64,000 nucleotides of DNA from a bacterium (GTDB lineage Bacteria; Patescibacteriota; Minisyncoccia; UBA6257; MFKM01): contig JAUYAV010000019.1 of the NCBI GenBank assembly GCA_030693325.1, forward strand, positions 65,324 through 129,323. The letters are read 5' to 3'. The notes beneath the pieces were generated by a model, which saw only the letters and a list, made by a program, of their open reading frames with translations, was not told the DNA's origin and made no database searches. Below are positions 534-20,820 of the stretch, in pieces. The translations under genes were made by a program, and so were the position numbers. Position 1 is the stretch's first letter, and each line of letters opens with the position of its first letter.

Positions 534-548
534 CCCCGCACAAGTGAG

Positions 549-630
549 TGGGCGAGGCGGGATTCGAACCCGCACTCCTTTCGGAACACGGTTCTAAGCC
601 GTGCGCCTATACCAATTCGGCTACTCGCCC
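549..630 (-). tRNA. tRNA-Leu (anticodon UAG), type II with long variable arm
   Basis: Acceptor GGGCGAG/CTCGCCC, anticodon stem CACGG/CCGTG, loop CTTAGAA, variable hairpin TCC-GAAA-GGA, T-arm GCGGG-TTCGAAT-CCCGC. Confidence 0.85.
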
Positions 631-1292
631 AAAAATTGCTTAGCTATTACATATTTTCTTTCCAAATAATTCTCTACTTTAGGATAATACATAAAATTTA
701 ATAATTTAATAGAGTCGGCTTTCGCATAAGCTAATACATAAATATCACTTTTCATTTCAATCCACCCTCCTTTAATTTTAAATTGATTGAAAATTTTATT
801 CTTTATCCAATTTAAAAATAATGGACTTGCCGAAAATAATCTGGTTCGTAGTTGAATATGTTTACTTTCGGGATGCGAAGCGATACTAATATTTCCGTCA
901 CCATCAATACACCCTCTAAGAAAATCAGCAAAATATTCGTCGGGTATATTTAGAGAGCCGATGGTCTTTGATTTAGCGGGGGTTAATCCTAATGATAATA
1001 AAAATTCATAAAAATTTTTGTCACCAAATTGGACTTGAAAATATTTTTTAATTTTTGATTTTTCACGGGTTTTACGCCCAATTCTATTTTTAAGCCCCAA
1101 GCATTTTTTAAAAGTTAAAATCATATCTTTGTCCTTTGAAGTCATGTTTAAATGCCGACCGTCTTTAGATAAATTCCCATCGGTTGCGATAAGGCCTATT
1201 GCATAAGCAAAGTTAGGAGACCATTCTATTAGTACTTTGTTTAATCGTTTCATTATTATGTCAATTATACTAAACCACATAGCGTTTGCCAA
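621..1292 (-). CDS. Double-motif LAGLIDADG homing endonuclease (223 aa; TTG start at 1292, or the internal ATG four codons later)
   Basis: Two motifs: YAIGLIATDGNLS and FLRGCIDGDGNIS. The stop codon TAG is nt 8-10 of tRNA-Leu(UAG). Confidence 0.85.
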   Translation of the reverse strand: MANAMWFSIIDIIMKRLNKVLIEWSPNFAYAIGLIATDGNLSKDGRHLNMTSKDKDMILTFKKCLGLKNRIGRKTREKSKIKKYFQVQFGDKNFYEFLLSLGLTPAKSKTIGSLNIPDEYFADFLRGCIDGDGNISIASHPESKHIQLRTRLFSASPLFLNWIKNKIFNQFKIKGGWIEMKSDIYVLAYAKADSIKLLNFMYYPKVENYLERKYVIAKQFLGE

Positions 1293-1313
1293 TGTTCGAG
1301 TGTTTTAATTATT

Positions 1314-1339
1314 GTGCCTGCCAGTTCCGCCACGGGAGC
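1314..1339 (-). pseudogene. 5' portion of a tRNA-Leu-like gene (acceptor GCTCCCG, then TG and the D-arm 5' part) lying directly upstream of the LAGLIDADG ORF
   Basis: 15 nt (tgccagttccgccac) are identical to intact tRNA-Leu(CAG). Its acceptor is perfectly complementary to the 3' fragment at 495-501. Confidence 0.55.
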
Positions 1340-1458
1340 TTTAATTTGACAATTTATAAATTTTATGCTATTTTTATAACTGTTTCAAGATGAGAATGTT
1401 TTTTATTTTGAAACGAGTTCTTTAATAATTTTATAAAAGAAAAACTGTAAAAGAAAGG

Positions 1459-2541
1459 ATGGTGGTTGAAATGGGTATTTTTTTAATGTTTTTGTGGATA
1501 GCAGTAGGACTGAGTATTTGGTTTCAAGGATTAAGGAAGATTCCAGCTGACCCGCCATGCGTTGCCTTGATTACTTTTTTCGGGAAACCTATTCCAGAAT
1601 ACAAAGAGGCAGGATGGCGATTCTTTTTTCTGTACCCATTTATTTTTGGATACATCCTGATAGATGTTTCCAAAAAAAATAGCACGGAAAAAGAAATATC
1701 TAGCCAATTGGTAAGGGCTCCGGATTTTGCGGAATTTTTAGTGCCCTTAGAAATCACCTGGACTCCAATGAAAGATGGACAGGCTTTGATAGAATATATC
1801 AAGTCAAAAAAAGAAAAAGGAGTCTGGGAGATTTTGGCCGGTATTGTGGCTCAGCGTCTCCGGGAGTGGGCTATTTCTTCAATTGAAGGACCACAAGATG
1901 GGGAAGCATTACTAAAAGCCGGAGATGATGCCGTAGCTATTTTAATAAAGGCAATCGCTGGCAACGCTTTGTCCCCAATTCCCGGGCCATTTCCTACCCA
2001 AATTCTCCTGCATTATTTTAAAGTTCCTCGGCCTTCGGTTAGGCCGGAAGAGAAAAAAATTGCTGGAAAAAATTGGGAAAAATTGGAAGAGGAATTACGG
2101 AAACTACCACCGGGGTTGGTTACAACTATCAAAACTGAAGTGGAAAAAAGAAGGGATGGAATCAACGATATTAGGAACGGCAACGGGAAACAGGCTATTT
2201 CGCATTTAGGAATAGAGCTGAAAAGGTTAAACATCGGAGAAATAAAGGCCACCGGGAAATATGGTGAATCCCTGGAGTCAAAAGCAAAGGAGGAGCGGGA
2301 GAGAAAATCCGAAACATTAGAAATCCAACATGTTGCTGACACCGTTGATAGATTAAAAAAACAGTTGGGAGTTTCCAATGAAACGGCCTTAGAAATTCTC
2401 CAGACCGAACGCGGCAAGGTGACAAAGAGCATCAGCGAGAATAAATGGAATATTTCGCCGGAAACCAGGGCGATGATTGAAAAAATCGCGCCAGAAATAT
2501 TAGCTGGGTTTCTGAAAAAGTTTACGAAAGGAGGTAAATAA
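1459..2541 (+). CDS. SPFH/band-7 (stomatin/HflK-like) membrane protein with coiled-coil C-terminus
   Basis: N-terminal TM segment, then an SPFH-like pattern (FGKPIPEYKEAGWRFFFLYPFI...VDVS...LVRAPDF). Confidence 0.5.
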   Translation: MVVEMGIFLMFLWIAVGLSIWFQGLRKIPADPPCVALITFFGKPIPEYKEAGWRFFFLYPFIFGYILIDVSKKNSTEKEISSQLVRAPDFAEFLVPLEITWTPMKDGQALIEYIKSKKEKGVWEILAGIVAQRLREWAISSIEGPQDGEALLKAGDDAVAILIKAIAGNALSPIPGPFPTQILLHYFKVPRPSVRPEEKKIAGKNWEKLEEELRKLPPGLVTTIKTEVEKRRDGINDIRNGNGKQAISHLGIELKRLNIGEIKATGKYGESLESKAKEERERKSETLEIQHVADTVDRLKKQLGVSNETALEILQTERGKVTKSISENKWNISPETRAMIEKIAPEILAGFLKKFTKGGK

Positions 2542-2542
2542 A

Positions 2543-2947
2543 TTGGCTGACGGATCTGCAGCGAAAGATAAGGGAGTTTCTAAATGGCTTTGGTGGATTC
2601 CGGTTTTACTAGCAGTAATCGGATTAGTGACAATAATAGGTGTCTCGAATTCGAAACGGACCGTCGGTTCTACTTCCTACCGGATTGCGGCTGACACTCA
2701 AAACATCTGGCCTCGCATTGGAGAAACAGTGAAAGTAAAAATCTATCCCGATCGTTTGTCAGGATGGATTAATCTTCCTCCGGGCAGGAAATTCGTAATT
2801 GATGCCCCAGGGGAAATTGAATATTTTTTTTGGACTGGCGAACGTATTCTTATCAAAAATAAGAATACGGAATGGTTAGGGAAAGTTCCTAACTGTTCTT
2901 TCCGACTCCGAGGAACAGCAGGCGAAGCCACTATCAGTATTCAGTAA
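2543..2947 (+). CDS. Small membrane protein, possibly an NfeD-like partner of the SPFH protein (TTG start, translationally coupled)
   Basis: SD sequence aaaggaggt; start 2 nt after the upstream stop; N-terminal TM segment. Confidence 0.35.
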   Translation: MADGSAAKDKGVSKWLWWIPVLLAVIGLVTIIGVSNSKRTVGSTSYRIAADTQNIWPRIGETVKVKIYPDRLSGWINLPPGRKFVIDAPGEIEYFFWTGERILIKNKNTEWLGKVPNCSFRLRGTAGEATISIQ

Positions 2948-2951
2948 CTAA

Positions 2952-2990
2952 AGCCCCGTTAGATAAATTATCTAACGGGGCTTCTTTTTA
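2952..2990. terminator. Bidirectional terminator between convergent genes (agccccgttagata/tatctaacggggct stem)
   Basis: 14-bp perfect stem, 3-nt loop, T run. Confidence 0.65.
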
Positions 2991-3012
2991 CTAAAAATTA
3001 TTTAATTAAAGT

Positions 3013-3354
3013 TTAGGCACCGATTAATTGTCGGACGATGAATTCAACGCCTTTGGCGATTAAACCGACACCGATTGCCACGGCCGCGTAAATCAACTGA
3101 TTCGCGGCTGATTTGGTTTTTTCAGGATCTCCGGCGCTACCCAGATAACTGAAAGCCGCCATCATAATGAAGATTACAGCAAGAAGCAAAAGAATGGTGA
3201 AAATCCAATTGATGACGGTATTAAGAATGCGGAGGATGTCTTCAATATGAGTGATCGGAGTCGGGGCCGTCTGGATGCCTTGGGCTAAAACTAAAGTCGG
3301 CAAACCGATTAAAGATATTAACAAAATAGCGCTTTTTAATTGTTTTATTTTCAT
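3013..3354 (-). CDS. TrbC/VirB2-like small pilin-family membrane protein (paralog 3 of 3)
   Basis: Signal peptide, then hydrophobic helix, an SAGDPEK loop and a second hydrophobic helix; tandem paralogs. Confidence 0.45.
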   Translation of the reverse strand: MKIKQLKSAILLISLIGLPTLVLAQGIQTAPTPITHIEDILRILNTVINWIFTILLLLAVIFIMMAAFSYLGSAGDPEKTKSAANQLIYAAVAIGVGLIAKGVEFIVRQLIGA

Positions 3355-3385
3355 ATTTTATTTTTGTCTTTCGACCTTTTTACTA

Positions 3386-3754
3386 TTAACCGCCTAAAAG
3401 TTGCTGGATGATCGAGGTGATTCCCCAGGATATCAAGATTATACCATAACCGACGCAAGTCCAGAGAATCATTTGCTGAGCGCTTTTTATATTTTCGGGA
3501 TTATCACCGGCCGTTAAAATTTTAAAAGCGGCAAAAAGAATCATTATGGTGACAATCGGCGGAGCGATATAAACGCTCAAAGAGTAAGCGATACTGTTGA
3601 TTATCTGGCTGATACTTTCCACTCCCAAAGGATTAGGAATGGTAAAGCCGCCTCCTTGGTTGCCGCTTGGCGTTGTGCCCCCAGAGCGAGTCTGCGCCAA
3701 AACTTTATTAATCCCAAAAACAGCCGCGTATATTTTTATTAAAAGATAATTCAT
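3386..3754 (-). CDS. TrbC/VirB2-like small pilin-family membrane protein (paralog 2 of 3)
   Basis: Same architecture with a TAGDNPEN loop. Confidence 0.45.
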   Translation of the reverse strand: MNYLLIKIYAAVFGINKVLAQTRSGGTTPSGNQGGGFTIPNPLGVESISQIINSIAYSLSVYIAPPIVTIMILFAAFKILTAGDNPENIKSAQQMILWTCVGYGIILISWGITSIIQQLLGG

Positions 3755-3769
3755 AATCTTATTTTAACA

Positions 3770-4102
3770 TTAACACTTAATCGTGTACCATGGCCAGTTG
3801 AGTCCACCGGTCATTAAATTGAGAAAAGTGTTAAGAATCACCCAGGCGCTTAGCATAATGACTATTCCGATAATCGCCGAAAAAATGATACCCTGACTTT
3901 CTTTGAGTTTACTCGGATTGCCGCTGTTTATTATCATCATTATTCCGCCGAAAATTATAAAGGCAACGGCCAAAGGAAAGGCGATGTCTTGCGTCAAAAA
4001 ATTAATTATTTTTTGTCCAAATTGTAAAAAATCGCACCAAGTGCAACTGGTTCCGGAGCATTCGGGCGCAAGTTTAGCGAAAAATAAAACATTCAATAAC
4101 AT
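3770..4102 (-). CDS. TrbC/VirB2-like small pilin-family membrane protein (paralog 1 of 3)
   Basis: Same architecture (NSGNPSK loop); its start abuts the stop of the SBP gene. Confidence 0.45.
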   Translation of the reverse strand: MLLNVLFFAKLAPECSGTSCTWCDFLQFGQKIINFLTQDIAFPLAVAFIIFGGIMMIINSGNPSKLKESQGIIFSAIIGIVIMLSAWVILNTFLNLMTGGLNWPWYTIKC

Positions 4103-5413
4103 TTATCGTTGCATTAATTGGGTAATTTGGGCTTCAGCTTGGTTAATGGCGCTTTTCGCCGTTTGTTTGCCGCTTATCACTGATTCTATCATATCCGAAA
4201 AAATTGTTTCTATTTGGTCGCTGTCAATTTGGGGCCAGGATTTGGCGGTCAGGGCCTGTTTGGCAAAAACGCCTAACGCCGAGTCATTGATATATTTTTG
4301 AATCAGAGATCTTAAGGCCGGCGGATTATTGGTTTGCTGGAGATAGTTTTCCGCGTTGGTTTGATTGGTTGTTAAAAGAAGAATGAAATCCCAGGCTAAA
4401 TCCGAATTGGAACTTTTATTGGAAACTGTATAGCCCCGGTAATTGGCGTAATTTACCGGGTTTGTTTGGTCGTTTTGAGGCGCCGGCGCCACGGCGAAAT
4501 TCAAAAAAGGATTTTTGGTTTTAATATATGAAAGCTGATAGGCATAATTGAAAATCATCGCAACCGAACCTTCGGCAAAAGCATCCAGGGAATAATGAAG
4601 AGTATCGTTCCAGGCATAATCAAAATTTATTGGATTAGTGAAATGGGTGTAAAAATTCAAAGCGGTTAAGCCCGGTGAACTGCCGCCGGTCGTAGTTTGG
4701 CTGAAAGTGGCTCGGGTGAAATTACTGTCAACCATCTGGGCGCCGGCTTGAAGCATTAAAAGATTTAAAAGGTCGGTTGCTCGGTTGATGCTTTTATCAG
4801 AACCGCCGATGGCGGCTCCGGCCCGGCTGATTTTTCCGATTTTATCCAGAACTCTTACCGCGGGAATAATGTTTTGAAATTCCGTCCAGTTGGTCGGGAC
4901 CAAAGCTATTCCGCTTTGATTAAAAATGTCTTTGTTGTAAATAAGCGTTATAGTGTCGATAGAAAGAGGAAAAGCGTAGATAAGTTTGTTGTCGGTAAAA
5001 TCTTCTTTGACCACTTCGGGGAAAAGCTGGTCTGTGTAAGTTGCCAGGTTCAATTTTTCCTGGGGCAAAGGTGAAATTTTATCATAATGTTTCGGCAGCC
5101 AGGTGTTATGAATCATAAAAATATCCGGCCCTTTGCCGGCCGCCAAAGCGTTAATTAATTCATTTTCGTAAGTACCGGGGTCAAACTGGCGATAATTTAT
5201 CCTGATTCCGGAATGAAGATTCTGGAATTGATCAATAACGTTTCGGTAAGCGCTTTTTTGGTCATATACCCCCCAAAATTCTAAAGTGGCTTGAAGTTTT
5301 GTTTTAGTTGCCGGCCGCATTCCCGGAATAACCCCCAAAAAGACGAGAATAAAAAATAAAATTACAACTCCGACGACACTGACGATGATTAATTGATTGC
5401 GAGATAATTTCAT
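4103..5413 (-). CDS. Extracellular solute-binding protein, family 1 (sugar ABC-type SBP); no permease or ATPase adjacent
   Basis: N-terminal TM/signal segment and SBP_bac_1-like sequence. Confidence 0.65.
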   Translation of the reverse strand: MKLSRNQLIIVSVVGVVILFFILVFLGVIPGMRPATKTKLQATLEFWGVYDQKSAYRNVIDQFQNLHSGIRINYRQFDPGTYENELINALAAGKGPDIFMIHNTWLPKHYDKISPLPQEKLNLATYTDQLFPEVVKEDFTDNKLIYAFPLSIDTITLIYNKDIFNQSGIALVPTNWTEFQNIIPAVRVLDKIGKISRAGAAIGGSDKSINRATDLLNLLMLQAGAQMVDSNFTRATFSQTTTGGSSPGLTALNFYTHFTNPINFDYAWNDTLHYSLDAFAEGSVAMIFNYAYQLSYIKTKNPFLNFAVAPAPQNDQTNPVNYANYRGYTVSNKSSNSDLAWDFILLLTTNQTNAENYLQQTNNPPALRSLIQKYINDSALGVFAKQALTAKSWPQIDSDQIETIFSDMIESVISGKQTAKSAINQAEAQITQLMQR

Positions 5414-5451
5414 TATATTGATTTTAAATTATTTATTAAATTATTGCGAGG

Positions 5452-5515
5452 TCTTAATTACTCAATTACTTAATTACCGTAATTACAGTAATTGCGGTAA
5501 TTACTGTAATTATTT
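5452..5515. repeat. Tandem array of about 7 units of the palindromic octamer GTAATTAC (period 8-9 bp); copy A of three in the window
   Basis: cttaattactcaattacttaattaccgtaattacagtaattgcggtaattactgtaattatt. Confidence 0.85.
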
Positions 5516-7931
5516 ATATTGTAATCATTCCCACTAATTTGTCGCCTGGATCAAGGTTCATGATTTTTACGCCTTGAGTGGCCCGGCCTACCAAGCGAAT
5601 ACTGCTAATTTCGGTTTTCAAGATTTGGCCTTTCGCGGAAATCGCCAAAATTTCTTCGGCTTCGTCAATGATTTGTCCGGCGATTATCGGCCCGGTTTTG
5701 GAAGTGATTTTGGCGGTTTTAATTCCCGAACCGGAACGGCTCTGAATTCGGTATTGTTTTATGCTGGTTTGTTTGGCGAACCCGTTAGCCATCACCACTA
5801 ACAATCGCTGGTCTTTCGCTTCTTTTTTAATTATATCAATTCCGCTGACAAAATCGCCTTTTTTAAGTCTGATGGCTTTTACTCCGCTGGCGGTTCGGCC
5901 CATAGCTCGGACTTGTTTTTCGGGAAAACGGATAGCCTGCCCCAAAGCCGTGGCTAAAATAATTTCATCATGGCCGGAGGAAAGTTTAACCCATTTCAAA
6001 AGATCGTCTTTTTTGAGGTTAATGGCGATTAAGCCGTTGCGGCGGATGTTGGCGAAATCATCCGGCGTTGATTTTTTAATAACCCCGTTTTTGGTGGCCA
6101 TTACCAGAAACGCCGAGGCGTGATTTTTAGGATAACTGATTATGGCGCTGATTTTTTCTTCGGTCGAGAGGTCTAAGAAATTATAAATTGATTTGCCTTT
6201 GGATGTTCGGCTTGCTTGGGGAATTTCATAGGCCTTGGTTTGAAAAACCCGGCCGCGGTCGGTGAAAAACAAAACGCTGTCGTGGCTTTTGGCCGTCAGA
6301 ATTTGAGTGATAAAATCTTCTTCTTTCAGATCAAAGCCGATAAGTCCTTTGCCGCCGCGTTTCTGGCTCCGGAAACTGTCTGGCGCCAATCGTTTAATGT
6401 AACTGGCTTGGCTTAAAGTGATAATATTGTCTTCCTGGGGGATGAGATCTTCCTCGCGATATTCTTTGACTTCGGTGCTGATGATTTTGCTCCGCCGCGG
6501 ATTGTCAAAATTATTTTTTAATTCGGTTAATTCGGTTTTGATGATTTTCAAAATTTCTTTGGGATTTTTCAAAATGAATTGGAGGTCGGCAATCAGTTTC
6601 TTTTTTTCTTTTAATTCGTCTTCAAGTTTTTGGCGTTCCAGGGCGGCCAGGGTTTGAAGCCGCATTTCTAAAATAGCGTTGGCTTGAATGTCGCTGAATT
6701 TGAATTTTTTAACCAGATTTTCGCGGGCGGTTTCGCGGTCTTTTGATTTTTTAATAGTAGCGATGACTTCGTCTATTGAATCCAGGGCTTTTACTAAGCC
6801 GGTCAGAATATGCGCCCGTTCCTCGGCTTTTTTTAAATCAAACTCGGTTCTTTTTTTAATGACCTCCTGGCGGTATTTTATCCAGGCGCCAAGAATGTCT
6901 TTCAGGGACAACACTCGCGGTTGAATACCGTCAACCAAAGCCAGCATATTCAAATAAAACTCTTTTTGAAGGTCGGTGTGTTTGTAAAGAAAATTAAGAA
7001 TTTTTTGGGGATTAACGTCGCTTTTCAATTCAATGACGATTCTCAGCCCTTCTCTGTCGCTTTCATCTCTAATATCTTTAATGCCTTCAATTTTTTTATC
7101 CTGGACAAGGTCGGCGATTTTAATGATGAGCTCTGACTTATTCACCTGATAAGGAATCTCGGTGATTATAATGTCAAACTGTTTTTCTTTGCGTTCCTGA
7201 ATATCAGCCCTTGCCTGCATAGTGACTGAGCCCTTGCCCAAAGCATAGGTTTCGGCGATTGATTTGTTATAAATATAGCCGCCGGTCGGGAAATCAGGAC
7301 CAGGCACGATTTTTACCAAATCTTTTATTTCGGCCTGGGGATTATCAATTAAATATTTGGTCGCCTCAATTATTTCTCCTAAATTGTGGGGCGGGATATT
7401 AGTCATCATCCCGACAGCGATGCCGTAGGTTCCGTTGACCAAAAGATTCGGGAATTTGGCGGGCAGGACTTTCGGCTCCAGCCGGGTATTGTCATAATTC
7501 GGCTGCCAATCAACAGTTTCTTTCTCAATATCAACTAATAATTCTTCGGCAATTTTTGAAAGCTTAGCTTCGGTGTACCGGTAAGCCGCCGCGGAATCTC
7601 CGTCAATAGAACCGAAGTTTCCCTGTCCGTTAATTAACGGGTATCTTTGGGAAAAATCTTGGGCCATCCGTACTAAGGCATCGTAAACCGCAATATCGCC
7701 GTGAGGGTGATAACGGCCCAAAACCGAACCGATGATCGTGGCTGATTTCCGGAATTTGGCATCGCTTCTCAGGCCGTCTTCAAGCATGGCGTAGAGAATC
7801 CGGCGATGAACCGGTTTTAATCCGTCTCTGACGTCAGGCAAGGCCCGCGAAATAATAACTGAAAGGGCGTAATCCAAATAACATTCCTGAAGTTCGCTGG
7901 TAATTTCTTTTTTTTCTATTTTTTCCGGCAT
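5514..7931 (-). CDS. gyrA: DNA gyrase subunit A
   Basis: [21 protein letters not shown] and [18 protein letters not shown]. Confidence 0.95.
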
Positions 7932-7938
7932 ATTTTAT

Positions 7939-8301
7939 TTATTGAGTTGAAGTGGCATTTAAGATTCCCGGGGAACTGGTTGTGAAATTAGGGTTATCGG
8001 TTTCAACGGAGATTTTGCGAGCCGCGGTGATCAATTCTTTTATTTGGCCGACAATTGTTTTAAAACCGGTTATAAAAACTTGCCAGGAGGATTCTTTTGG
8101 CGTTTGAGCCGAAGATTGATTATCAGCCGGTTCGGTTGCCGCGGCCTGGTCCGAGTTAATAATTGTTTTATTAAAATAAATCGCCCAGAAGCTGATTATT
8201 AAAATCATAGCGATAGCGCTTAAAATAAAAAGCCAGTGTTTTTTTTTGGTTTCATCGGCCGCTTGAATATTTTGAAGGATTTTTCTTAAATTTTTAAGCA
8301 T
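7939..8301 (-). CDS. Hypothetical membrane protein
   Basis: ORF with an N-terminal TM helix. Confidence 0.4.
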   Translation of the reverse strand: MLKNLRKILQNIQAADETKKKHWLFILSAIAMILIISFWAIYFNKTIINSDQAAATEPADNQSSAQTPKESSWQVFITGFKTIVGQIKELITAARKISVETDNPNFTTSSPGILNATSTQ

Positions 8302-8879
8302 CCGATTATTAGTTTTTCCTTGGAAAGATCTTTTTTGCCGATGGTCAGTTTTTCCTGGGGTTCCACGCCGTTTTGGCCCAGTTCTTCAAGAAAAGATTTT
8401 ATATCCTTGAAATTTTCAAAAAGAGTCGGGACAATCAAACTCGGTTTTAACTGCCGGATTAATTTAGCCGCCGCCGCTTTCTCAATGAACGGCTTGCCGC
8501 CGGCCGGCACGAAAATAATATCAGCGTCTTCCAGGTATTCCTGGATTTTTTTGATTTCATTTTCTTCGGCCAGATGACCCAATAAAACAATTTTAAGGTC
8601 GTCAATTTCTATTGAATAAACCGACCTCAAATCTTTACCCGGTAAAGACCAGCCATTTATAGAAACATTTTTAATTTCGTATTCCCCGGGATAACTGATT
8701 TCAAAGGCCTCGGCCGGCTTGTTCTGTTCATTTGACAAGGGAGCGATGGTTTTGATAATAATATCGGCTCGGCCCCGAAAAGGAGCGAGATCGCCTTCCT
8801 TTTCAAAAGGGTCGGTGACAATAACCAAATCTCCGCTCTGGAGTTTAAAACAATTTTTTCCGTACCAAGTAATGACCAT
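8286..8879 (-). CDS. MBL-fold metal-dependent hydrolase-like protein (UPF0173-like)
   Basis: MVITWYGKNCFKL N-terminus typical of the family. Confidence 0.55.
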   Translation of the reverse strand: MVITWYGKNCFKLQSGDLVIVTDPFEKEGDLAPFRGRADIIIKTIAPLSNEQNKPAEAFEISYPGEYEIKNVSINGWSLPGKDLRSVYSIEIDDLKIVLLGHLAEENEIKKIQEYLEDADIIFVPAGGKPFIEKAAAAKLIRQLKPSLIVPTLFENFKDIKSFLEELGQNGVEPQEKLTIGKKDLSKEKLIIGCLKI

Positions 8880-8966
8880 AATTTTATTTAGAACTTTTAT
8901 TATATTGTATCCTTACTTGCTTTTCAACTAAAGATTGTTAGAATTAGTCATTAGACGTCAAAAAAT

Positions 8967-10052
8967 ATGCCCAACAATCAAAAAATTAATGTCATTGACC
9001 AATTAACGAAGGCCGACCCGAATCTGATTTCCTTGCTGAAAATCGGCGATTTGATTGAAGGCCAAGTTCTCAAAAAAGAACCGAAAAGGTTGTTTTTGGA
9101 TTTGGGGAAATACGGCACTGGGATCGTTTACGGAGTGGAATTCATCAACGCCAAAAATATCATCAAAAAACTCAATCCCGGTGATCCGGTAAAAGCGAAA
9201 ATTTTAGATTTGGATAATGATTCGGGTTATCTTGAATTGTCCTTGACCGAAGCGGGCAAATATAAAGTTTGGGAGGAATTGGGAGATTTAAAAGATCAAG
9301 ATGAGCCCATAAAAATTAAAGTGACCGGTTTTAACAGCGGCGGTTTAATGACGGAAATGAACGGACTGGCGGCTTTCCTCCCGGTTTCTCAATTAAGCAA
9401 CGAACATTACCCGAGAGTTGAAGACGGCGATAAAAAGAAAATCGCCGAAGAATTGAAAAAAATAGTCGGGCAGGAACTGATGGTGAAAATTATTGATTTT
9501 AATCCGCGCACCGGAAAACTGATAATTTCCGAACGGGAAGTGGTTGACAGACCGTCTAAGGCCTCATTGGAAAAATACGAGGCGGGACAGATAATTGACG
9601 GAATTATTTCCGGCGTGGCTGATTTTGGCGCCTTTGTTAAATTTGCCGATAATCCGGCGATAGAAGGATTGATTCATATTTCCGAATTAGACCACCGTTT
9701 AATTGATAACCCCAAAGAAATTGTTAAGGTTGACGATGCGGTCAAAGCCAAAATTATTGACATTAAAAACGGGAAAATTTTTCTTTCTCTCAAAGCATTG
9801 AAGCCCAATCCCTGGGATTCGGTTGAAGAAAAATATAAAACCGGCCAGGAAGTTATGGGCGTTGTTTCTAAATTTACGCCTTTCGGAGCGTTTATAAATC
9901 TTGATAATGAAATTCACGGCTTGCTTCATGTTTCCGAATTCGGCAGCGTTGAGGAGATGAAAAAGCAATTGGAAATCGGTAAAACTCAAAAATTTGTCAT
10001 CGGTTTGATCAATCCGCAGGAAAAAAGATTGATTCTCAAATTAGTTAAATAA
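8967..10052 (+). CDS. rpsA: 30S ribosomal protein S1 (4 S1 domains)
   Basis: Repeated S1 motifs (GAFVKF...GLIHISEL; GAFINL...GLLHVSEF). Confidence 0.8.
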   Translation: MPNNQKINVIDQLTKADPNLISLLKIGDLIEGQVLKKEPKRLFLDLGKYGTGIVYGVEFINAKNIIKKLNPGDPVKAKILDLDNDSGYLELSLTEAGKYKVWEELGDLKDQDEPIKIKVTGFNSGGLMTEMNGLAAFLPVSQLSNEHYPRVEDGDKKKIAEELKKIVGQELMVKIIDFNPRTGKLIISEREVVDRPSKASLEKYEAGQIIDGIISGVADFGAFVKFADNPAIEGLIHISELDHRLIDNPKEIVKVDDAVKAKIIDIKNGKIFLSLKALKPNPWDSVEEKYKTGQEVMGVVSKFTPFGAFINLDNEIHGLLHVSEFGSVEEMKKQLEIGKTQKFVIGLINPQEKRLILKLVK

Positions 10053-10073
10053 GGGCTTAGCAGTTTCATCATA

Positions 10074-11909
10074 ATGAAGGCATTTTCTAAAAATATTTTT
10101 TGGGCGATTATTACTTTAATAGTAATATCGTTGCTTTTTTCTTTATTTGCTCAAACGGCTAAAGCGCCGCAGTTTGTCACTTTAAACGATTTGGCTTCAA
10201 AGATTAACGCCGGCGAGGTGAGTAAAATTTCCGTTAATGAAAATGATCTGGCCGTTGATTTAAAAAACGGAGATAAATTAATTTCCAAAAAAGAAACCGA
10301 ATCCGGGCTTTCTGAAACTTTGAAAAATTTCGGGGTTGACCCGGCGGCTTTGCGCCAGGTGTCCCTGGAAGTTAAAGAGGCCTCCGGTTTCAAATTCTGG
10401 ATTAATCTTTTGGTGCCGATAGTTTTGCCGCTGTTGATTATCGGATTTATTTTTTGGCTGATGTTTAAGCAGGCGAGAAGCGGCGCCAACCAGGTCTTCA
10501 GTTTCGGCCGCGCCAACGTGAAAGTTTTCGCGCCTTTCAAAGACCGGATAACCTTTGAAGATGTCGCCGGATTGAAAGAAGCCAAGCAGGAATTGATGGA
10601 GGTGATTGATTTTTTGAAGAATCCAAAAAAATATTTGGAAATCGGCGCCCGCATTCCCCGCGGAATTTTACTGCTGGGTTTGCCGGGAACGGGTAAAACT
10701 TTAATCGCCCGGGCGACAGCCGGCGAAAGTAATGTGCCTTTTTTTCATATGTCGGCCTCGGAATTCGTGGAAATGTTTGTCGGTGTCGGCGCCAGTCGCG
10801 TCCGCGATCTCTTTTCCATCGCCAAAAAAAGCGCTCCTTGTATTGTTTTTATAGACGAAATTGACGCTGTCGGCCGGGAAAGGGGAGCCGGCTTGGGCGG
10901 CGGTCACGATGAAAGAGAACAGACCCTCAATCAGATATTGGTGGAGATGGACGGGTTTGATCGTGAAACCAACGTTATTATTTTGGCGGCGACCAACCGG
11001 CCCGATATTTTAGACCCGGCCCTGTTGCGGCCCGGCCGTTTTGACCGCCGCGTGATTTTGGATATGCCCGATATCAATGACCGCGAAGCGATTTTAAAAA
11101 TTCACTGCAAGGGAAAATCCTTGGGCAAAGATATTGATTTGAGGCAGGTGGCTATCCGCACCCCGGGTTTTTCCGGAGCGGATTTAGCCAATCTAACCAA
11201 CGAAGCCGCTATTTTGGCCGCCCGCCAGAATAAACATTTTATCAGTCAGGAAGATTTGTTTAATTCCATTGAAAAAGTCATTCTCGGCCCGGAACGCCGC
11301 ACCCGGGCGATTTCCGTGAAAGAAAAAGAATTAATCGCTTATCACGAAGCCGGCCACGCTTTAGTGGCGTCCGGTCTTAAAGACAGCGATCCGGTTCAAA
11401 AGGTTTCAATCATCAGCCGCGGCTTGGCTGGCGGTTATACTTTAAAATTGCCAATAGAGGAAAGAAGAATAGAAACCAAGTCCCAGTTTTTGGCGGAATT
11501 AGCGGTTTTATTCGGCGGTTATCTTTCCGAATCAATTGTTTTCGGCGACATCAGCACCGGCGCTTCCAACGATTTGAAACAAGCCACTGATTTGGCGAAA
11601 AAATTGGTTACCCGCTATGGGATGAGTGAAAAATTAGGGCCGCGGACTTTCGGCAAGACAGAAGAAATGATATTTTTGGGCCGCGAAATCACCACCGAAA
11701 AAGATTACTCGGAGGAATTGGCCAAAAAAATCGACGATGAAGTTGAAGCTTTAATTGAGCGGGCTATCAAAGCCGCCAAAAAAATTCTTTCTTCCCAAAG
11801 GAAAGCCCTGGATGCTATAGCTAAAACTCTGCTCCAAAAAGAAAGCATTGAGCGTGAGGAATTTGACAGGATAATCAAGAGTTTCAAAATCCAGCCCATA
11901 AAAGTATAA
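10074..11909 (+). CDS. ftsH: ATP-dependent zinc metalloprotease FtsH
   Basis: Walker [15 protein letters not shown] region, HEAGHAL zinc motif. Confidence 0.95.
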
Positions 11910-11910
11910 A

Positions 11911-12843
11911 ATGTCTAAAATCAGAGTTGGTGTTTTGAGAGGCGGCCCTTCGGCCGAGTATGAAATTTCTCTTTTGACCGGTGAAAATGTTTTAAAAAAT
12001 ATTCCTTCGGATAAATACGAAGCCATTGATATTTTAATTTCCAAAAATGGCCAATGGCCGGAAATGCCGGCTGTGGATGTAATTTTTAACGCTCTCCACG
12101 GCGAATATGGCGAAGACGGTCAGGCACAGACAGTTTTAGAAAAAATGGATTTGCCTTATACCGGCTCCGGGATTATTGCTTCGGCTTTGGCGATGGATAA
12201 ATGGGCTTCGCAAAAATTATTCCGCCAAGCCGGATTAAAAACGCCGCCGGCAATAGAGATGGAAAAATTATTTTTAGATTCAATAGTTAAGCCTGAATTT
12301 GATTTACCTTGGGTAGTGAAACCGGCCGGCCGCGGTTCTTCGGTGGGGATTTCTTTGATTAATGACGAAAAAGAATTTCAGCCGGCTTTGGATAAGGCGT
12401 TTCAATACGATGATTTGGTTTTGACGGAGAAATTTATCAGAGGCAAAGAAATTACCTGCGGCATTCTGGAAAATTTTAACGGGGAAAAATATTTTGCCCT
12501 GCCGGTAGTGGAAATTGTTCCGCCGTCTGACAAAACTTTTTTTGATTCTCAATGTAAATATGACGGCACGAGCCAAGAAATTTGCCCCGGCCGGTTTGAT
12601 GAAAAAACCGCTTTGGCGATTCAGGAGGCCGCTATTTCGGCTCATCAGGCGTTGGGTTGCCGCGATTATTCCCGGACTGATATGATTGTAGCTGAAAATG
12701 GCATTTATATTTTAGAAGTTAATACCCTCCCCGGGTTAACCAAGGAATCACTTTTTCCAAAAGCCGCGGCGGCCGCCGGTTGTTCCTTTGACCGATTATT
12801 AGAGCATCTGATAACATTAGCTTTAAAGAGAAAGGATATATAG
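11911..12843 (+). CDS. ddl: D-alanine--D-alanine ligase
   Basis: KIRVGVLRGGPSAEYEISL N-terminus and ATP-grasp motifs. Confidence 0.9.
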   Translation: MSKIRVGVLRGGPSAEYEISLLTGENVLKNIPSDKYEAIDILISKNGQWPEMPAVDVIFNALHGEYGEDGQAQTVLEKMDLPYTGSGIIASALAMDKWASQKLFRQAGLKTPPAIEMEKLFLDSIVKPEFDLPWVVKPAGRGSSVGISLINDEKEFQPALDKAFQYDDLVLTEKFIRGKEITCGILENFNGEKYFALPVVEIVPPSDKTFFDSQCKYDGTSQEICPGRFDEKTALAIQEAAISAHQALGCRDYSRTDMIVAENGIYILEVNTLPGLTKESLFPKAAAAAGCSFDRLLEHLITLALKRKDI

Positions 12844-12924
12844 TTTAGTTGGTTCTTTTAAAATATTGATGTTATAATGAACCAATGAACTACTATATTT
12901 ATATAATAATTACAAGGTTCAATT

Positions 12925-13599
12925 ATGGCACGATTTAAAGATCACGAAAAAGCGCTAAATTTAAGAAGGCAGGGAATGAGTTATAGCCAGATTAAGAAAT
13001 TGCTGAAAGTAAGCAAGGGCACTTTGAGTGTTTGGCTAAGAGATTATCCTCTATCAAAACAAAGGATAAGGGAGCTAAGAGATTGGAATGAACAAAGAAT
13101 TGAAAGGTGCAGAGAAACAAAACAAAGGAAGAAAGAAAAGAGACTTAAGGATGTTTATGAATTACAGGAAAAAATTCTTTTGCCCTTAAAAAGTAAAGAG
13201 ATTTTTATGATGGGTCTAGGTCTTTATTGGGGAGAAGGCACTAAACATAGAGCAGGTTGTCTTTCTGTTTCAAATACCGACCCGTCTATTATTAGATTTT
13301 TTATTTGCTGGCTTAATAAGAGTTTAAATGTTTCTAGAAATAAAATGAAAGTAGCTCTGCAATTATATAGCGATATGAATATTGATAAAGAGATGCGGTA
13401 TTGGTCAGAAACTTTAAAAATTCCCCTTCCTCAATTCGTAAAGCCGTATATTAAAAAAACTTCCAGTAAAAATATAAATCATAAAGGGGGCTTTGGACAC
13501 GGAACTTGTAATTTAAGGACAAATAACACTTCACTTTCCGAGAAAATTATTATGGGATTGAAAGTAATTTCGGATAAATATGGTCAAAGGGGCGTGTAG
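12925..13599 (+). CDS. HTH plus single LAGLIDADG-like domain protein (degenerate motif GLGLYWGEGTK); homing-endonuclease-like
   Basis: N-terminal HTH (MSYSQIKKLLKVSKGTLSVWL). C-terminal region is similar to the second domain of the 621-1292 endonuclease (DPSIIRFFICWLNKSL vs SPLFLNWIKNKI). Stop TAG is nt 8-10 of tRNA-Ile. Confidence 0.45.
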   Translation: MARFKDHEKALNLRRQGMSYSQIKKLLKVSKGTLSVWLRDYPLSKQRIRELRDWNEQRIERCRETKQRKKEKRLKDVYELQEKILLPLKSKEIFMMGLGLYWGEGTKHRAGCLSVSNTDPSIIRFFICWLNKSLNVSRNKMKVALQLYSDMNIDKEMRYWSETLKIPLPQFVKPYIKKTSSKNINHKGGFGHGTCNLRTNNTSLSEKIIMGLKVISDKYGQRGV

Positions 13600-13661
13600 C
13601 TCAGTGGTAGAGCGCTACTCTTATAAAGTAGAAGTCGCAGGTCCGATCCCTGCCACGCCCA
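13590..13661 (+). tRNA. tRNA-Ile (anticodon UAU)
   Basis: Acceptor GGGCGTG/CACGCCC, D-arm GCTC-AGTGGTA-GAGC, anticodon stem CTACT/AGTAG, loop CTTATAA, T-arm GCAGG-TCCGATC-CCTGC. Confidence 0.8.
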
Positions 13662-13795
13662 CAAAATTAAAAATTTTTTAGAGGTTGACATTAGAAATTC
13701 TTTTGCTAAGATAGGGTCTTTCACGCTCTTTAAAAACATATTGTTCTGCTTTTCGCTTTTAGCAGACGATTAAAATTAGGAAAGGGGGATATACG

Positions 13796-14098
13796 TTGTA
13801 TCGGGGAAAGCGTTGTTTTAACAATTCTTACAAGAATCGGAGGGGGGAAATGTGTCATCAGCAAACGCTTACTAGGGGAAACAGCTCGGACGTTTCTTGC
13901 GGCCAGCCGGTATTTTTAGCCAAATTGATTCATTCTATCAGTCAGGCGGTAATTTTTGAGGTATGGTATTGCCCCTTGGGTAGAGGTTTGGTTGATTGGA
14001 AAAAAGGCGGGAAATGTACAGTATTAGGAATATATTTTGGAGATTTAGTTCGGGCTTTAGAATTCAGCAAAGATAAAGAATATGAATTTATCCGATGA
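13796..14098 (+). CDS. Hypothetical small Arg/Cys-rich protein (TTG start)
   Basis: Strong SD aaagggggata 7 nt upstream; terminator downstream. Confidence 0.3.
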   Translation: MYRGKRCFNNSYKNRRGEMCHQQTLTRGNSSDVSCGQPVFLAKLIHSISQAVIFEVWYCPLGRGLVDWKKGGKCTVLGIYFGDLVRALEFSKDKEYEFIR

Positions 14099-14126
14099 TT
14101 TCCCAAATAAAAATTTCTAAAAGCGA

Positions 14127-14166
14127 AAATCCCCGTCAGCGAATTTGCTGATGGGGATTTTTATTT
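14127..14166 (+). terminator. Rho-independent terminator (atccccgtcagc/gctgatggggat)
   Basis: 12-bp stem followed by TTTTTATTT. Confidence 0.65.
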
Positions 14167-14197
14167 AATACATCTGAATTGGTGGGGGAGTCGACCC

Positions 14198-14323
14198 CGT
14201 TAGAAGTCTTGAATAGAAAAAATTTATTAAATTTTTTCTACCTGGCGCCTGCCAGGGCTAATCTCAAACCATTATCAATTTACCTATTTTATAGCACATC
14301 GGCTCAGGGCAGACTTCTAACGG
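14198..14323. repeat. Perfect 14-bp inverted repeat (ccccgttagaagtc ... gacttctaacgggg) enclosing about 98 nt that contain a small CCTGGC/GCCAGG hairpin
   Basis: Exact reverse-complement pair; no ORF inside. Confidence 0.5.
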
Positions 14324-14522
14324 GGTTGACAAATTTAATGATTTTGGCATTATTAATCTATTGTTTTTGTTCTTTAAAATAATTAATAATTTTTCCTCTG
14401 GAATTTGTTTTCTAAACAAGGAAGGTTGGTAAATCAAGAAAGGAGGCAGGTTTGATAAAAAGGAGGTTGCCACGGAATAAGCGCTATACCAATCATCACA
14501 ATAAGCACAAAAAGGGGGGGAT

Positions 14523-14786
14523 ATGTGCAGAAAAATCACAGAGCAAGGTCACTCAATCAGCCAGGCGCATGATTACGGTCCGGCCATCGGGACGGTACAT
14601 TTTTTGAACATCAAGAAAGAACCCGAGATGCTTCAATCATGTTCCGGTTGCGGCTTGATCACCAAGTACAATATGTCTCTGGAGGAGTTGCTGGCCGATT
14701 TTACAAAGCGGGGCATTAAATTTAACTTTGTCCCTAGTAGAAAGGTTAATCTGAAGGTCGTGTCTAAAGAGCTCGTTTTAGCCTAG
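14523..14786 (+). CDS. Hypothetical small protein with CSGCG motif
   Basis: SD aaaggggggg before ATG; stem-loop terminator at about 14815-14850. Confidence 0.4.
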   Translation: MCRKITEQGHSISQAHDYGPAIGTVHFLNIKKEPEMLQSCSGCGLITKYNMSLEELLADFTKRGIKFNFVPSRKVNLKVVSKELVLA

Positions 14787-14895
14787 TCAAAAATAAAAAG
14801 GAGGAAAAAATTTTAAAGGCGGATCATCTTTTGACCCGCCTTTTTATTATTTGTCTGATTTTTTAATCTAATTTAAACTTTTTAAGTTGTAAGTT

Positions 14896-15834
14896 TTAAT
14901 GGCGCCGGCGAGCGTGGAACGTCTGGTGGATTTCTTTGAGTTCTTTATTGGTTAAATGAGTATAAATCTGAGTAGTGGAAACATTGGCGTGCCCCAGCAG
15001 TTCCTGAACTGAACGCAAATCCGCGCCGTTAATCAGAAGGTCGGTGGCATAAAGATGGCGAATCATATGAGGCGTTACTCTTTCCTGGATTCCGGCTTTG
15101 CGGGCGTAGTAATCAATCAATCTTTGAACCGTCCGCGGGATAATCCGGCCGATGATTTTCGCCTGCCTGCCGGCAGGCAGGGTTCTTTGACGGCCGCTTA
15201 AGCTGATAAATAACGCTTCTTCGGTGTCGGCTTTTTTATCTCTTTTTTCCAGATAATTTTTAATCGCTTTTTTGGCGTCTGGAGAAAGAAAAACAATCCT
15301 CAATTTATCGCCCTTGCCCCTGATAGTGATTTCTCCCCGGTCAAAATTCAGATGACGATTGAGCGAGCAAAGTTCGGACAAACGCAGGCCGGTGGAAAAA
15401 AACATTTCCAAAATCGCTTTGTCCCGAAGGCCGCGCAGATCTATGCCGTCCGTTGATTTTAAAAGCCGTTCCAAATCCGAATAATCAATGATTTCAATTT
15501 GTCTTTGCGGTATTTTCGGCAGTTCAATTTTTTCCGGCGCCAAGACATTAAAATCTCTTTTGATTAAATATTTAAGAAAGTTCCGCAGAGCGATAATGTA
15601 GTAGGCCTGGGTATTTTTTTTAATGGGTTCGTCCCGCGGAGTTTTGGTCCGGGCTAAAACTAAACGGAAATCCCGGACCCGGTCAGCCGTGATGTCTTCT
15701 TCGGTTTTGATGCCGCCGGATTTGATAAAAATTTTGAGATAATGCTCGTAATTCACCCGGGTTTTCGGCGACCGGTTTTTTTCGATTTCCAGATAATTCA
15801 GGTAATCTTCCAAAAGCTTTTCAATAGCGACCAT
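14896..15834 (-). CDS. Tyrosine site-specific recombinase, XerC/XerD/integrase family
   Basis: C-terminal catalytic region RHLYATDLLINGADLRSVQELLGHANVSTTQIYTHL; N-terminal core-binding domain. Confidence 0.85.
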   Translation of the reverse strand: MVAIEKLLEDYLNYLEIEKNRSPKTRVNYEHYLKIFIKSGGIKTEEDITADRVRDFRLVLARTKTPRDEPIKKNTQAYYIIALRNFLKYLIKRDFNVLAPEKIELPKIPQRQIEIIDYSDLERLLKSTDGIDLRGLRDKAILEMFFSTGLRLSELCSLNRHLNFDRGEITIRGKGDKLRIVFLSPDAKKAIKNYLEKRDKKADTEEALFISLSGRQRTLPAGRQAKIIGRIIPRTVQRLIDYYARKAGIQERVTPHMIRHLYATDLLINGADLRSVQELLGHANVSTTQIYTHLTNKELKEIHQTFHARRRH

Positions 15835-20730: not shown

Positions 20731-20812
20731 GCCCGGGTGGCGGAATGGTATACGCGCAACACTTAAAATGTTGTGGCCTCAGGTCATGCGGGTTCGACTC
20801 CCGCCCCGGGCA
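20731..20812 (+). tRNA. tRNA-Leu (anticodon UAA), type II
   Basis: Acceptor GCCCGGG/CCCGGGC, anticodon stem CAACA/TGTTG, loop CTTAAAA, T-arm GCGGG-TTCGACT-CCCGC. Confidence 0.85.
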
Positions 20813-20820
20813 CAAATTTT

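Follow-up and report, generated by a model that had tools for sequence, protein, structure and literature searches.

Two genes that end inside tRNA genes of a patescibacterium are probably compact, intron-less homing-endonuclease cassettes that rebuild the tRNA gene by 5′-segment duplication

Introduction

Why would two endonuclease-like genes of one bacterium each end inside a tRNA gene, on a stop codon that the tRNA itself supplies? The question is raised by a 64,000-nucleotide (nt) stretch of a patescibacterial genome (GenBank assembly GCA_030693325.1, contig JAUYAV010000019.1, positions 65,324 to 129,323), hereafter the window, which carries two open reading frames (ORFs) that we call ORF1 and ORF2. 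ORF1 (621–1253, minus strand) encodes a double-motif LAGLIDADG protein of 210 amino acids (aa), and its stop codon TAG (623–621) is nt 8–10 of an intact tRNA-Leu(UAG) gene (548–630, minus strand; found by ARAGORN and scored at 65 bits by the Rfam tRNA model). ORF2 (12925–13599, plus strand) encodes 224 aa and stops at TAG 13597–13599, which is nt 8–10 of an intact tRNA-Ile(UAU) gene that lies 3′ of it (13590–13662, plus strand; ARAGORN, Rfam 73.9 bits). The two 3′ ends read ...TTG GGC GAG TAG and ...AGG GGC GTG TAG, and each overlaps its tRNA by 10 nt. An earlier reading of the letters alone, here called the original prediction, had given these ORF ends and overlaps, and ARAGORN, Rfam and our reading of the ORFs showed both coordinates and geometry to be exact. 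The prediction went further, taking the geometry as a sign of a family of endonuclease-tRNA modules that move or are maintained as a unit.

Insertions of related kinds have been described in these bacteria: LAGLIDADG genes occur in rRNA insertions of Patescibacteria (PMC11270868), and group I introns, mostly without endonuclease genes, occur in their tRNA genes (PMC13011429). Here we compare the two loci with ORF1 neighbourhoods from 52 species-representative genomes and ORF2 neighbourhoods from 64 metagenome loci. The closest relatives of the window were ranked by FtsH (85–96% identity, n = 8), and the comparison sequences, numbered with an L, are metagenome assemblies throughout. We conclude that ORF1 and ORF2 are probably compact homing-endonuclease cassettes that lack an intron, insert into tRNA genes and restore these genes through a duplicated tRNA 5′ segment.

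Results

The clearest view of the ORF2 locus comes from relatives that lack the ORF. In L151, whose FtsH is 96% identical to that of the window, the empty site reads ...GAGAGAAAG|GGCGCGTAGCTCAATGG, and the corresponding window sequence is ...AAGAGAAAG|GATATATAGTTTAGTTGGTTCTTTTAAAAT... The fragment GGATATATAGTTTAGTTGGTT (12834–12854, plus strand), which corresponds to nt 1 to approximately 20 of tRNA-Ile, lies exactly where the tRNA 5′ end sits in L151, and we therefore regard it as a displaced and decayed tRNA-Ile 5′ fragment. The host gene ddl (11911–12843, plus strand; D-Ala-D-Ala ligase by NCBIfam) runs into this remnant, so that its last codons and stop, GAT ATA TAG (12835–12843, stop at 12841–12843), lie inside it. 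Better-preserved remnants, with the acceptor strand and TAGCTCAGTGGT, stand 5′ of the cassette in at least 9 other loci (L068, L070, L079, L081, L087, L092, L098, L100, and L102). ORF2 is present in 2 of the 8 closest genomes (the window and L065) and absent from the other 6; in L151 to L157, ddl is followed directly by a tRNA-Ile gene that looks functional, with no ORF2 between them. Where ORF2 is present, the old tRNA 5′ fragment is followed by promoter, ORF, and complete tRNA, within a backbone ftsH-[ORF2]-tRNA-Ile-tRNA-Val-rluA-rplS that is conserved in most genomes. Hopping of the ORF together with a whole tRNA between genomic sites was also considered, and is ruled out for ORF2 by this syntenic tRNA cluster.

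A similar arrangement is found at ORF1. In L156 (FtsH 85% identical, 585-kb contig), the syntenic genes for tRNA-Phe, tRNA-Arg(GCG), and tRNA-Leu(UAG) are present and ORF1 is absent, and window positions 1321–1474 align with the 5′ end of the L156 tRNA-Leu(UAG) and its upstream promoter region. Within and beside this alignment lies the displaced tRNA-Leu 5′ fragment GCTCCCGTGGCGGAACTGGCAGGCAC (1314–1339, minus strand), an acceptor strand plus D-arm that shares 21 of 26 positions with the start of the tRNA-Leu(CAG) gene of the window. After an interruption of approximately 21 nt follows TTGGCAAACGCTATGTGGTTTAG (1292–1270), which runs from the D-loop to the anticodon TAG, and GCTCCCGTGGCGGAACTGGCAGGCAC and TTGGCAAACGCTATGTGGTTTAG together appear to form a tRNA-Leu pseudo-half that reaches the UAG anticodon. 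Upstream of it, a promoter-like TTGAAA-17-TAAAAT of the former tRNA-Leu gene (1360–1388, minus strand) is homologous to the region upstream of the L156 tRNA-Leu(UAG). We read the 5′ segment of the intact window tRNA-Leu(UAG) as having been brought in with the ORF1 cassette. The Rfam tRNA model gave no match on the upstream remnants, a covariance model being unable to score half tRNAs, and for this reason we built a sequence profile from the 5′ halves of genuine tRNA-Leu genes. When 847 kb, in which the annotated tRNAs had been masked, were searched with this profile by nhmmer, 9 of the 11 matches fell upstream of ORF1 starts. The window's own match is weak (E = 2.9) and its identification comes mainly from the synteny alignment. 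Seven loci retain the whole acceptor strand and D-arm, and full-length equivalents stand 50 to 60 nt 5′ of ORF1 in loci that include L002, L004, L006, L015, L016, and L043. In both families, tRNA 5′ fragments precede the cassette at a constant distance in many loci. A further pair of filled and empty sites comes from another tRNA: relative to L075, L060 carries a 629-nt insertion, consisting of the ORF only, between rplS and tRNA-Leu(GAG). This insertion ends 30 nt 5′ of the tRNA. Its ORF, which lacks a stop codon of its own, continues across the native leader and into the tRNA. About 1 in 12 of such rplS/tRNA-Leu(GAG) sites is filled, L060 being filled and L075 and about ten others empty.

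A pseudo-half that breaks off at the anticodon also brings to mind a group I intron whose ribozyme was lost, the interrupted tRNA becoming a pseudogene while a tandem duplicate took over. The ORF1 junction lies in the anticodon loop, the place where bacterial tRNA group I introns insert, and the enzyme that best matches ORF1 in structure, I-Tsp061I, is itself encoded by an intron. Such tRNA introns are abundant in Patescibacteria (PMC13011429), and the rRNA introns of these bacteria encode LAGLIDADG enzymes (PMC11270868); however, the endonuclease genes in their tRNA introns are of the HNH family, not LAGLIDADG (PMC13011429). The loci themselves speak against this origin. An Rfam scan of the window found no group I intron (no RF00028-type match), only 15 to 25 nt separate the pseudo-anticodon from the ATG in ORF1 loci, which leaves no space for a ribozyme, and the 3′ half of the interrupted tRNA was not found. 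In addition, the upstream half in ORF1 loci has an acceptor strand that is not complementary to the 3′ terminus of the tRNA downstream, and the ORF2 junction is in the D-loop, which is no intron site. We consider intron ancestry distinctly unlikely; it is moreover a story of origin, under which the present-day mechanism would not differ.

The remnants appear to be put to use by the cassettes. Upstream of ORF1 lies a promoter-like site, TTGGCA-17-TATAAT (1264–1292, minus strand), that matches the consensus at 11 of 12 positions. Its −35 element TTGGCA is the D-loop of the tRNA-Leu pseudo-half, and its −10 element TATAAT stands directly 3′ of the pseudo-half's UAG "anticodon" (TAG 1272–1270). 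The ATG follows only 10 nt past the −10 element, so the ORF1 mRNA would be leaderless or nearly so. The start is most likely this ATG at 1253 rather than the TTG at 1292. The pattern TTGG[CT]A..ACGC-N9-TAG-(0-4)-TATAAT-(6-10)-ATG, in which the bases before TATAAT can also be written yTTAG, is found upstream of nearly all UAG-type ORF1 homologs. The left end of the ORF2 cassette (12849–12924, plus strand) is conserved across approximately 40 loci as TTGTTCTTT-TAAAAT-N8-TATAAT-GAACC...GGTTCAATT-ATG. In the window it has a −35-like TTGGTT, which is the D-loop of the remnant, and a TG-extended TATAAT (12873–12878); these elements were read by eye, and a default promoter scan did not list the site. 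Between the −10 box and the ATG, an inverted repeat, TGAACC (12878–12883) and GGTTCA (12916–12921), is kept in all six pairs across 28 sequences. These showed no compensatory change, only one-sided C to U changes, and an RNA stem and a DNA operator are for this reason indistinguishable: the repeat could be an RNA hairpin that hides the ribosome-binding site or an operator for the helix-turn-helix (HTH) protein that ORF2 encodes.

We then asked how general the association with tRNA genes is. The searches returned 2292 homologs of ORF1 and 1955 of ORF2, all of them from Patescibacteria. In 47 of the 52 genome loci, ORF1 relatives are followed within a few nt, on the same strand, by tRNA-Leu(UAG), tRNA-Leu(GAG), or tRNA-Phe(GAA). 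The closer relatives precede tRNA-Leu(UAG), a subfamily of 43–50% identity precedes tRNA-Leu(GAG), and two loci have tRNA-Phe(GAA). Every ORF2 relative with enough downstream DNA has tRNA-Ile(UAU) next; the ORF2 loci without a called tRNA (2 of 44 unique loci) lie at contig ends with partial tRNAs. Three ORF1 loci (L031, L034, and L046) are atypical, with no tRNA found downstream and with tRNA-Leu(UAG) or tRNA-Leu(CAA) placed either upstream of the ORF or in divergent orientation to it; rearrangement or decay of the cassette may be the cause. Paralogs extend the range of tRNAs. In L081 and L083, a 241-aa ORF2 paralog (3958–4683; E = 5e-27 with the family hidden Markov model) precedes tRNA-Val(GAC) and stops 22 nt inside it, and in L117, a 73-kb IMG/VR contig, a distant ORF2-like gene (2501–3247) lies between tRNA-Leu(AAG) and tRNA-Leu(CAG), and its stop codon falls 15 nt into the second of these. 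In L124, a 359-kb viral contig of jumbo-phage size, two tRNA-Gly genes flank a distant LAGLIDADG gene (2501–3130). A viral origin of the families was considered and set aside: IMG/VR holds only distant relatives (24–38% identity), of which 2 of 34 adjoin tRNAs. The original prediction had linked the ORFs to the rarer isoacceptors, a link that is lost once the sister subfamilies at tRNA-Leu(GAG), tRNA-Phe(GAA), tRNA-Val(GAC), and tRNA-Leu(CAG) are taken into account. The tRNAs linked to cassettes all have A35 (anticodons UAG, GAG, CAG, UAU, GAA, and GAC), which may reflect no more than membership of one or two tRNA clusters.

The 10-nt overlap turned out to be a different matter. TAG occupies nt 8–10 in every tRNA-Ile(UAU) seen, and in the cassette-free loci L151, L154/L155, L156, and L157 ddl ends on the TAG of the live tRNA-Ile, in the same frame and with the same 10-nt overlap (AAG GGC GCG TAG in L151, AGG CGC GTG TAG in L154). 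Similarly, ftsH ends on the TAG of the tRNA-Ile remnant in several loci (for example, L070 and L087). The overlap is also far from constant within the families. At ORF2/tRNA-Ile(UAU) it is 10 nt in 24 loci and 23 nt in 1, and 17 have a stop of their own (42 of 44 unique loci); the 32 unique ORF1/tRNA-Leu(UAG) loci comprise 11 with the 10-nt overlap, 12 with other overlaps (5–98 nt), and 9 with gaps. Because ddl and ftsH terminate on the same tRNA TAG, the geometry is generic: it is a by-product of extreme compaction plus the U8-A9-G10 of the tRNA, and a stop codon at tRNA nt 8–10 is an ordinary result of such compaction. On this point the original prediction, which had itself named the use of the same overlap by unrelated genes as grounds for abandoning the idea, does not hold. 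One may ask whether compaction explains everything, the ORFs being unrelated genes that happen to abut tRNAs and take their stop from the common UAG at nt 8–10. The overlaps of ddl and ftsH would fit, as would rplS, which ends 2–29 nt before tRNA-Leu(GAG). However, this does not account for the family-specific linkage to one tRNA species in over 100 loci, for the sites that are empty in some genomes and filled in others, for the remnants, or for the mosaics described below. As a full explanation, which we consider very improbable, compaction is already refuted by the linkage statistics; it stands for the 10-nt geometry.

If the cassettes are mobile, their history should differ from that of the host genes around them. 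We compared pairwise identities over up to 42 unique loci, with 78 to 194 locus pairs per comparison. Host genes co-diverge (rho 0.65 for ftsH and rluA, 0.83 for rluA and rplS), and ORF2 identity is uncorrelated with that of FtsH, RluA, or L19 (rho 0.05, 0.15, and −0.02, respectively). Some pairs have FtsH at 92–94% and ORF2 at 66–72% identity, and others have FtsH at 50–57% and ORF2 at 75–78%. Mosaics locate the breakpoints. Compared with L075, L060 and L054 are 91–95% identical in nt sequence over ftsH and the first approximately 190 nt of ORF2 (FtsH 93–94%), approximately 69% in the nuclease-type domain, 51–73% in tRNA-Ile and tRNA-Val, and approximately 90% again in rluA. Between L054 and L060, the difference is confined to the stretch from approximately 85 nt before the tRNA through the end of tRNA-Ile, and the neighbouring tRNA-Val is identical. 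The window and L151 are approximately 92% identical outside 12100–14900, and their tRNA-Ile genes differ strongly despite these similar flanks. Degenerate ORF copies were found in L007, L051, and L110. The ORF2 phylogeny is thus incongruent with that of the host genes and the mosaics are centred on the ORF/tRNA junction, which is the pattern that a mobile homing endonuclease gene would be expected to leave. For ORF1 the picture of mobility is weaker, being drawn from the L156 empty site and the remnants. The modules of the original prediction can be kept in part: the tRNA association is family-wide and the ORF tail and tRNA 5′ segment appear to be one inserted unit, whereas the tRNA genes stay in the backbone. 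Likewise, what varies between strains is the presence of the ORFs (ORF2 in 2 of 8 relatives, ORF1 missing from L156) and not that of the tRNA genes, which are kept at the empty sites.

The neighbourhood of ORF2 suggests another vehicle. The 1.2 kb between tRNA-Ile and a XerC-like tyrosine recombinase gene (13663–14896) are non-homologous between the window and L151; the xerC gene itself (14896–15834, minus strand) and the sequence beyond are 91–95% identical. The region between looks like variable cargo adjoining a tyrosine recombinase. The variable region could then be cargo of an integrative element that targets tRNA genes and is moved by this recombinase, the non-homologous stretch being bordered by tRNA-Ile on one side and bounded by the conserved recombinase gene on the other. 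Most ORF2-tRNA-Ile loci, however, have no recombinase nearby and are still mosaic, the cassette is on the 5′ side of the tRNA, and it is the 5′ segment that is duplicated, not the 3′ part as is usual for integrases. We find this explanation scarcely credible. Elsewhere, a 1.1-kb insertion after tRNA-Val(GAC) (L054 3392–4492, also in L055, L056, and L058) is absent from the close relative L060; it contains two ORFs (166 and 117 aa) and has at its end a fragment resembling a tRNA 5′ part (4417–4443, nhmmer E = 3e-5).

The reading of the cassettes as homing endonucleases also depends on the proteins. ORF1 matches Pfam LAGLIDADG_3 (PF14528) above the cut-off (E = 4e-7), and its family profile finds the archaeal intron endonuclease I-Tsp061I (PDB 2dch) with E = 4.6e-8. 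Its AF2 model (pLDDT 90.6) has two alpha-beta-beta-alpha-beta-beta-alpha units and matches I-Tsp061I by Foldseek with E = 1e-10. There were 112 PDB matches at E ≤ 1e-3, mainly of LAGLIDADG type among the matches listed; I-DmoI, I-SceI, I-AniI, and others are matched, and the structural neighbours include WhiA (PDB 3hyi). The two motifs, AIGLIATDG and LRGCIDGDG, carry the acidic residues D25 and D119, which are invariant in 35 homologs. By sequence and model, ORF1 is a canonical double-motif LAGLIDADG protein and a predicted nuclease. ORF2 has an N-terminal HTH (HTH_23), a helix of 40 residues, and a C-terminal domain without a Pfam family (AF2 model, pLDDT 87.8). This domain contains a GLGLYWGEGTK motif, whose acidic residue is near-invariant, and a conserved NHKGGFGHGTC insertion, and its superfamily comprises 2604 clusters at 50% identity. 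A profile of 55 superfamily members aligns with the second motif of I-DmoI and the following strands and helix (E = 1e-4). In this alignment GLxLYWGEGxK..sNTDP pairs with GLYVAEGDKT of I-DmoI, with E104 and K107 aligned. Weak matches to Pfam Hom_end occur in 6 of 37 family members; the window protein has no Pfam LAGLIDADG match, and Pfam scans of distant superfamily members gave HTH matches only. With moderate confidence, we assign ORF2 as an HTH joined to a single LAGLIDADG-like domain with a large conserved insertion. The original prediction had placed both ORFs in the LAGLIDADG family, which is borne out for ORF1 by Pfam and I-Tsp061I and has to be softened to LAGLIDADG-like for ORF2. The recognisable C-terminal segment that the two were said to share was not recovered (BLASTP E = 2.5; hhalign probability of the family profiles 0.1–1.3%).

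Proteins of this build may also serve the host. ORF1 and ORF2 would then be domesticated LAGLIDADG/HTH regulators or tRNA processing factors, similar to WhiA, inherited vertically and kept through co-transcription with the tRNA. ORF2 does have an HTH, is conserved to the same degree as FtsH, and sits in a conserved backbone, and the inverted repeat in its leader could be its operator; for ORF1, WhiA is a structural neighbour and pairs of loci with related flanks look vertical. Domesticated LAGLIDADG proteins, however, usually lose their catalytic acidic residues, and residues of catalytic type are invariant here. Furthermore, the tRNA-Ile of 6 of the 8 closest relatives looks functional without ORF2, L156 does without ORF1, and the uncoupling of ORF2 divergence from host genes, the mosaic locus, and the pseudogenised copies are not what vertical inheritance predicts. 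We judge domestication unlikely.

Several observations weigh against the interpretation of ORF1 and ORF2 as mobile homing-endonuclease cassettes. The ORF2 model had no Foldseek match at E ≤ 1e-3, and the LAGLIDADG assignment of this protein rests on the profile alignment at E = 1e-4. Its mean conservation equals that of FtsH (64.7% versus 64.1%), which is unusual for a purely selfish gene, and a few ORF1 pairs with related flanks appear to have been inherited vertically. All ORF1 pseudo-halves have the same 9-nt spacing between D-stem and TAG, which points to a single, old origin and not to insertions that occurred anew many times. Metagenome assemblies may contain strain chimeras that mimic mosaics, although L054 to L056 and L058 are identical across independent samples. 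Neither tRNA co-diverges with the host genes, and since this includes tRNA-Val, part of the tRNA signal may be saturation. There is also no simple split between target and immune alleles: the tRNA of the empty loci L153/L154 is almost identical to that of the filled locus L065, as would follow from recent precise loss. Finally, the rebuilt tRNA keeps its full sequence, so that the target is not destroyed as it is by insertion of an intron or intein, and immunity would need differences between alleles.

The window as a whole, which stems from an ultra-small bacterium of the Parcubacteria type within the Patescibacteria (CPR), carries eight tRNAs (ARAGORN and Rfam), and its genes include gyrA, rpsA, ftsH, ddl, and xerC. 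Its ftsH and gyrA are free of inteins; the FtsH homologs P0470 and P0488 carry inteins with a LAGLIDADG_3 domain, and the GyrA of L153 (1–2201) has an intein with an Intein_splicing match. These inteins in relatives indicate that LAGLIDADG-type elements occur in the lineage in several guises. One annotation needs care: the GTG start of a mechanically called ORF at 20773–21726 (plus strand) falls within tRNA-Leu(UAA) (20731–20813), and the true start is probably further downstream.

Discussion

The arrangement of remnant, promoter, ORF, and complete tRNA at both loci suggests how such a cassette could work. The ORF1 cassette would have entered the anticodon loop of tRNA-Leu(UAG), after nt 36, and that of ORF2 the D-loop of tRNA-Ile(UAU), after approximately nt 20. 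No ribozyme splicing would be involved: a replacement tRNA 5′ segment, fused to the last codons of the ORF, would create a complete tRNA gene immediately downstream. Because the cassette carries this copy, the ORF runs into nt 1–10 of the tRNA and stops at U8-A9-G10, or elsewhere if the tRNA has UGG. The old 5′ fragment would be left upstream, its D-loop TTGG.. reused as the −35 element of the cassette and its TAG still able to stop the upstream host gene. The proteins are probably active nucleases that recognise specific sites and cleave tRNA alleles in which the cassette is missing or the sequence has diverged. Repair would then copy the cassette and adjacent tRNA sequence by co-conversion, homology being provided on one side by the tRNA 5′ fragment and on the other by the 3′ part of the tRNA, and the direct repeat of the 5′ segment would permit precise loss and hence a cycle of gain and loss. 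The tRNA is most likely co-transcribed with the ORF and released by RNase P; at every locus whose stop codon is part of the tRNA, this cut would strip the mRNA of its stop. A promoter for the tRNA within the last part of the ORF was considered and discarded as a general feature: TAnnnT at a spacer of 5 is enriched in only approximately 28% of tRNA-Ile loci, through recurrent YNKM codons, and is not enriched for tRNA-Leu. With no fixed −10 box before the tRNAs, these are probably made from the cassette transcript.

We tentatively raise the wider possibility that these features belong together as a distinct strategy by which homing endonucleases establish themselves in essential RNA genes without a ribozyme. 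The tRNA 5′ segment would have two uses, to rebuild the gene and to provide the homology for homing into every copy of the tRNA concerned, and the cassette would take over transcription of the tRNA with the leftover D-loop as its −35 element. Cleavage by RNase P at a stop inside the tRNA, leaving a stop-less mRNA, could limit the dosage of the nuclease, and the fast turnover of tRNA stems between close relatives might be the trace of an arms race in which tRNA alleles and the specificity of the nuclease evolve against each other. A full-text literature search, which included PMC11270868 and PMC13011429, found no description of free-standing cassettes that lie next to or within tRNA genes and carry a second copy of the 5′ segment. 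If our interpretation is correct, rebuilding by segment duplication would be a third route, besides the intron and the intein, by which homing endonucleases live in essential genes, and with thousands of copies in Patescibacteria a widespread one. It would explain the sharp differences in some tRNA genes between near-identical strains with reduced genomes. It would also expose a systematic annotation problem, made up of tRNA pseudo-halves, stop-less ORFs, and probable nucleases that are labelled "HTH-domain proteins". Two large families of candidate site-specific nucleases, compact at 210–224 aa, would result, with tRNA genes as their likely targets.

Among known systems, the closest functional analogue is SegB of phage T4, a free-standing GIY-YIG homing endonuclease encoded in a tRNA gene cluster, whose recognition site includes a conserved tRNA motif and which drives the inheritance of its own gene and of neighbouring tRNA genes by co-conversion (PMC2330249). 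The comparison with freestanding phage endonucleases in tRNA clusters made in the original prediction is thus a fair one: in both cases a free-standing nuclease gene lies among tRNAs, and co-conversion matches the mosaics at the ORF/tRNA junction found here. SegB differs in belonging to another nuclease family and to a phage, and in lying between genes and not inside a tRNA gene; neither a remnant nor a second copy of a tRNA 5′ segment accompanies it, and its ORF stops outside any tRNA. Closest by sequence and fold are the LAGLIDADG enzymes encoded in rRNA introns of archaea and CPR bacteria and in bacterial tRNA introns, such as I-Tsp061I and I-DmoI (PMC11270868, PMC13011429). ORF1 shares their fold and motifs, and ORF2 aligns with motif 2 of I-DmoI. 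These enzymes target conserved structural-RNA genes, as would be the case here, and the ORF1 junction lies in the anticodon loop. The cassettes, in contrast, have no ribozyme or splicing; the RNA gene would be restored at the DNA level, and the target regenerated instead of split.

A replacement of a gene end is reportedly found in atp6 of the fungus Allomyces, in work credited to Paquin, Laforest and Lang in 1994, where a free-standing mitochondrial endonuclease ORF is said to replace the end of the host gene and to leave the old end as a remnant. As in our cassettes, the ORF would travel with a replacement terminal segment while the displaced segment decays beside it; in Allomyces, however, the segment is said to be the 3′ end of a protein-coding gene, joined to it in frame, and here it is a tRNA 5′ segment that follows the ORF, in bacteria. 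Integrative elements that target tRNA genes, such as phages and genomic islands, have a tyrosine integrase, att sites, and an element-borne copy of the tRNA 3′ part. Similarly to the cassettes, they insert in a tRNA gene and rebuild it from the copy they carry, but a cassette consists of a promoter and an ORF only, has no integrase, and duplicates the 5′ part. WhiA, finally, is a domesticated transcription factor with an HTH and a LAGLIDADG domain that is catalytically dead, and its gene is, to our knowledge, universally conserved in its clade. ORF2 would share with WhiA the combination of a LAGLIDADG scaffold and an HTH, with the order of the domains reversed; unlike WhiA, it retains the acidic residue, and its occurrence in close relatives is patchy.

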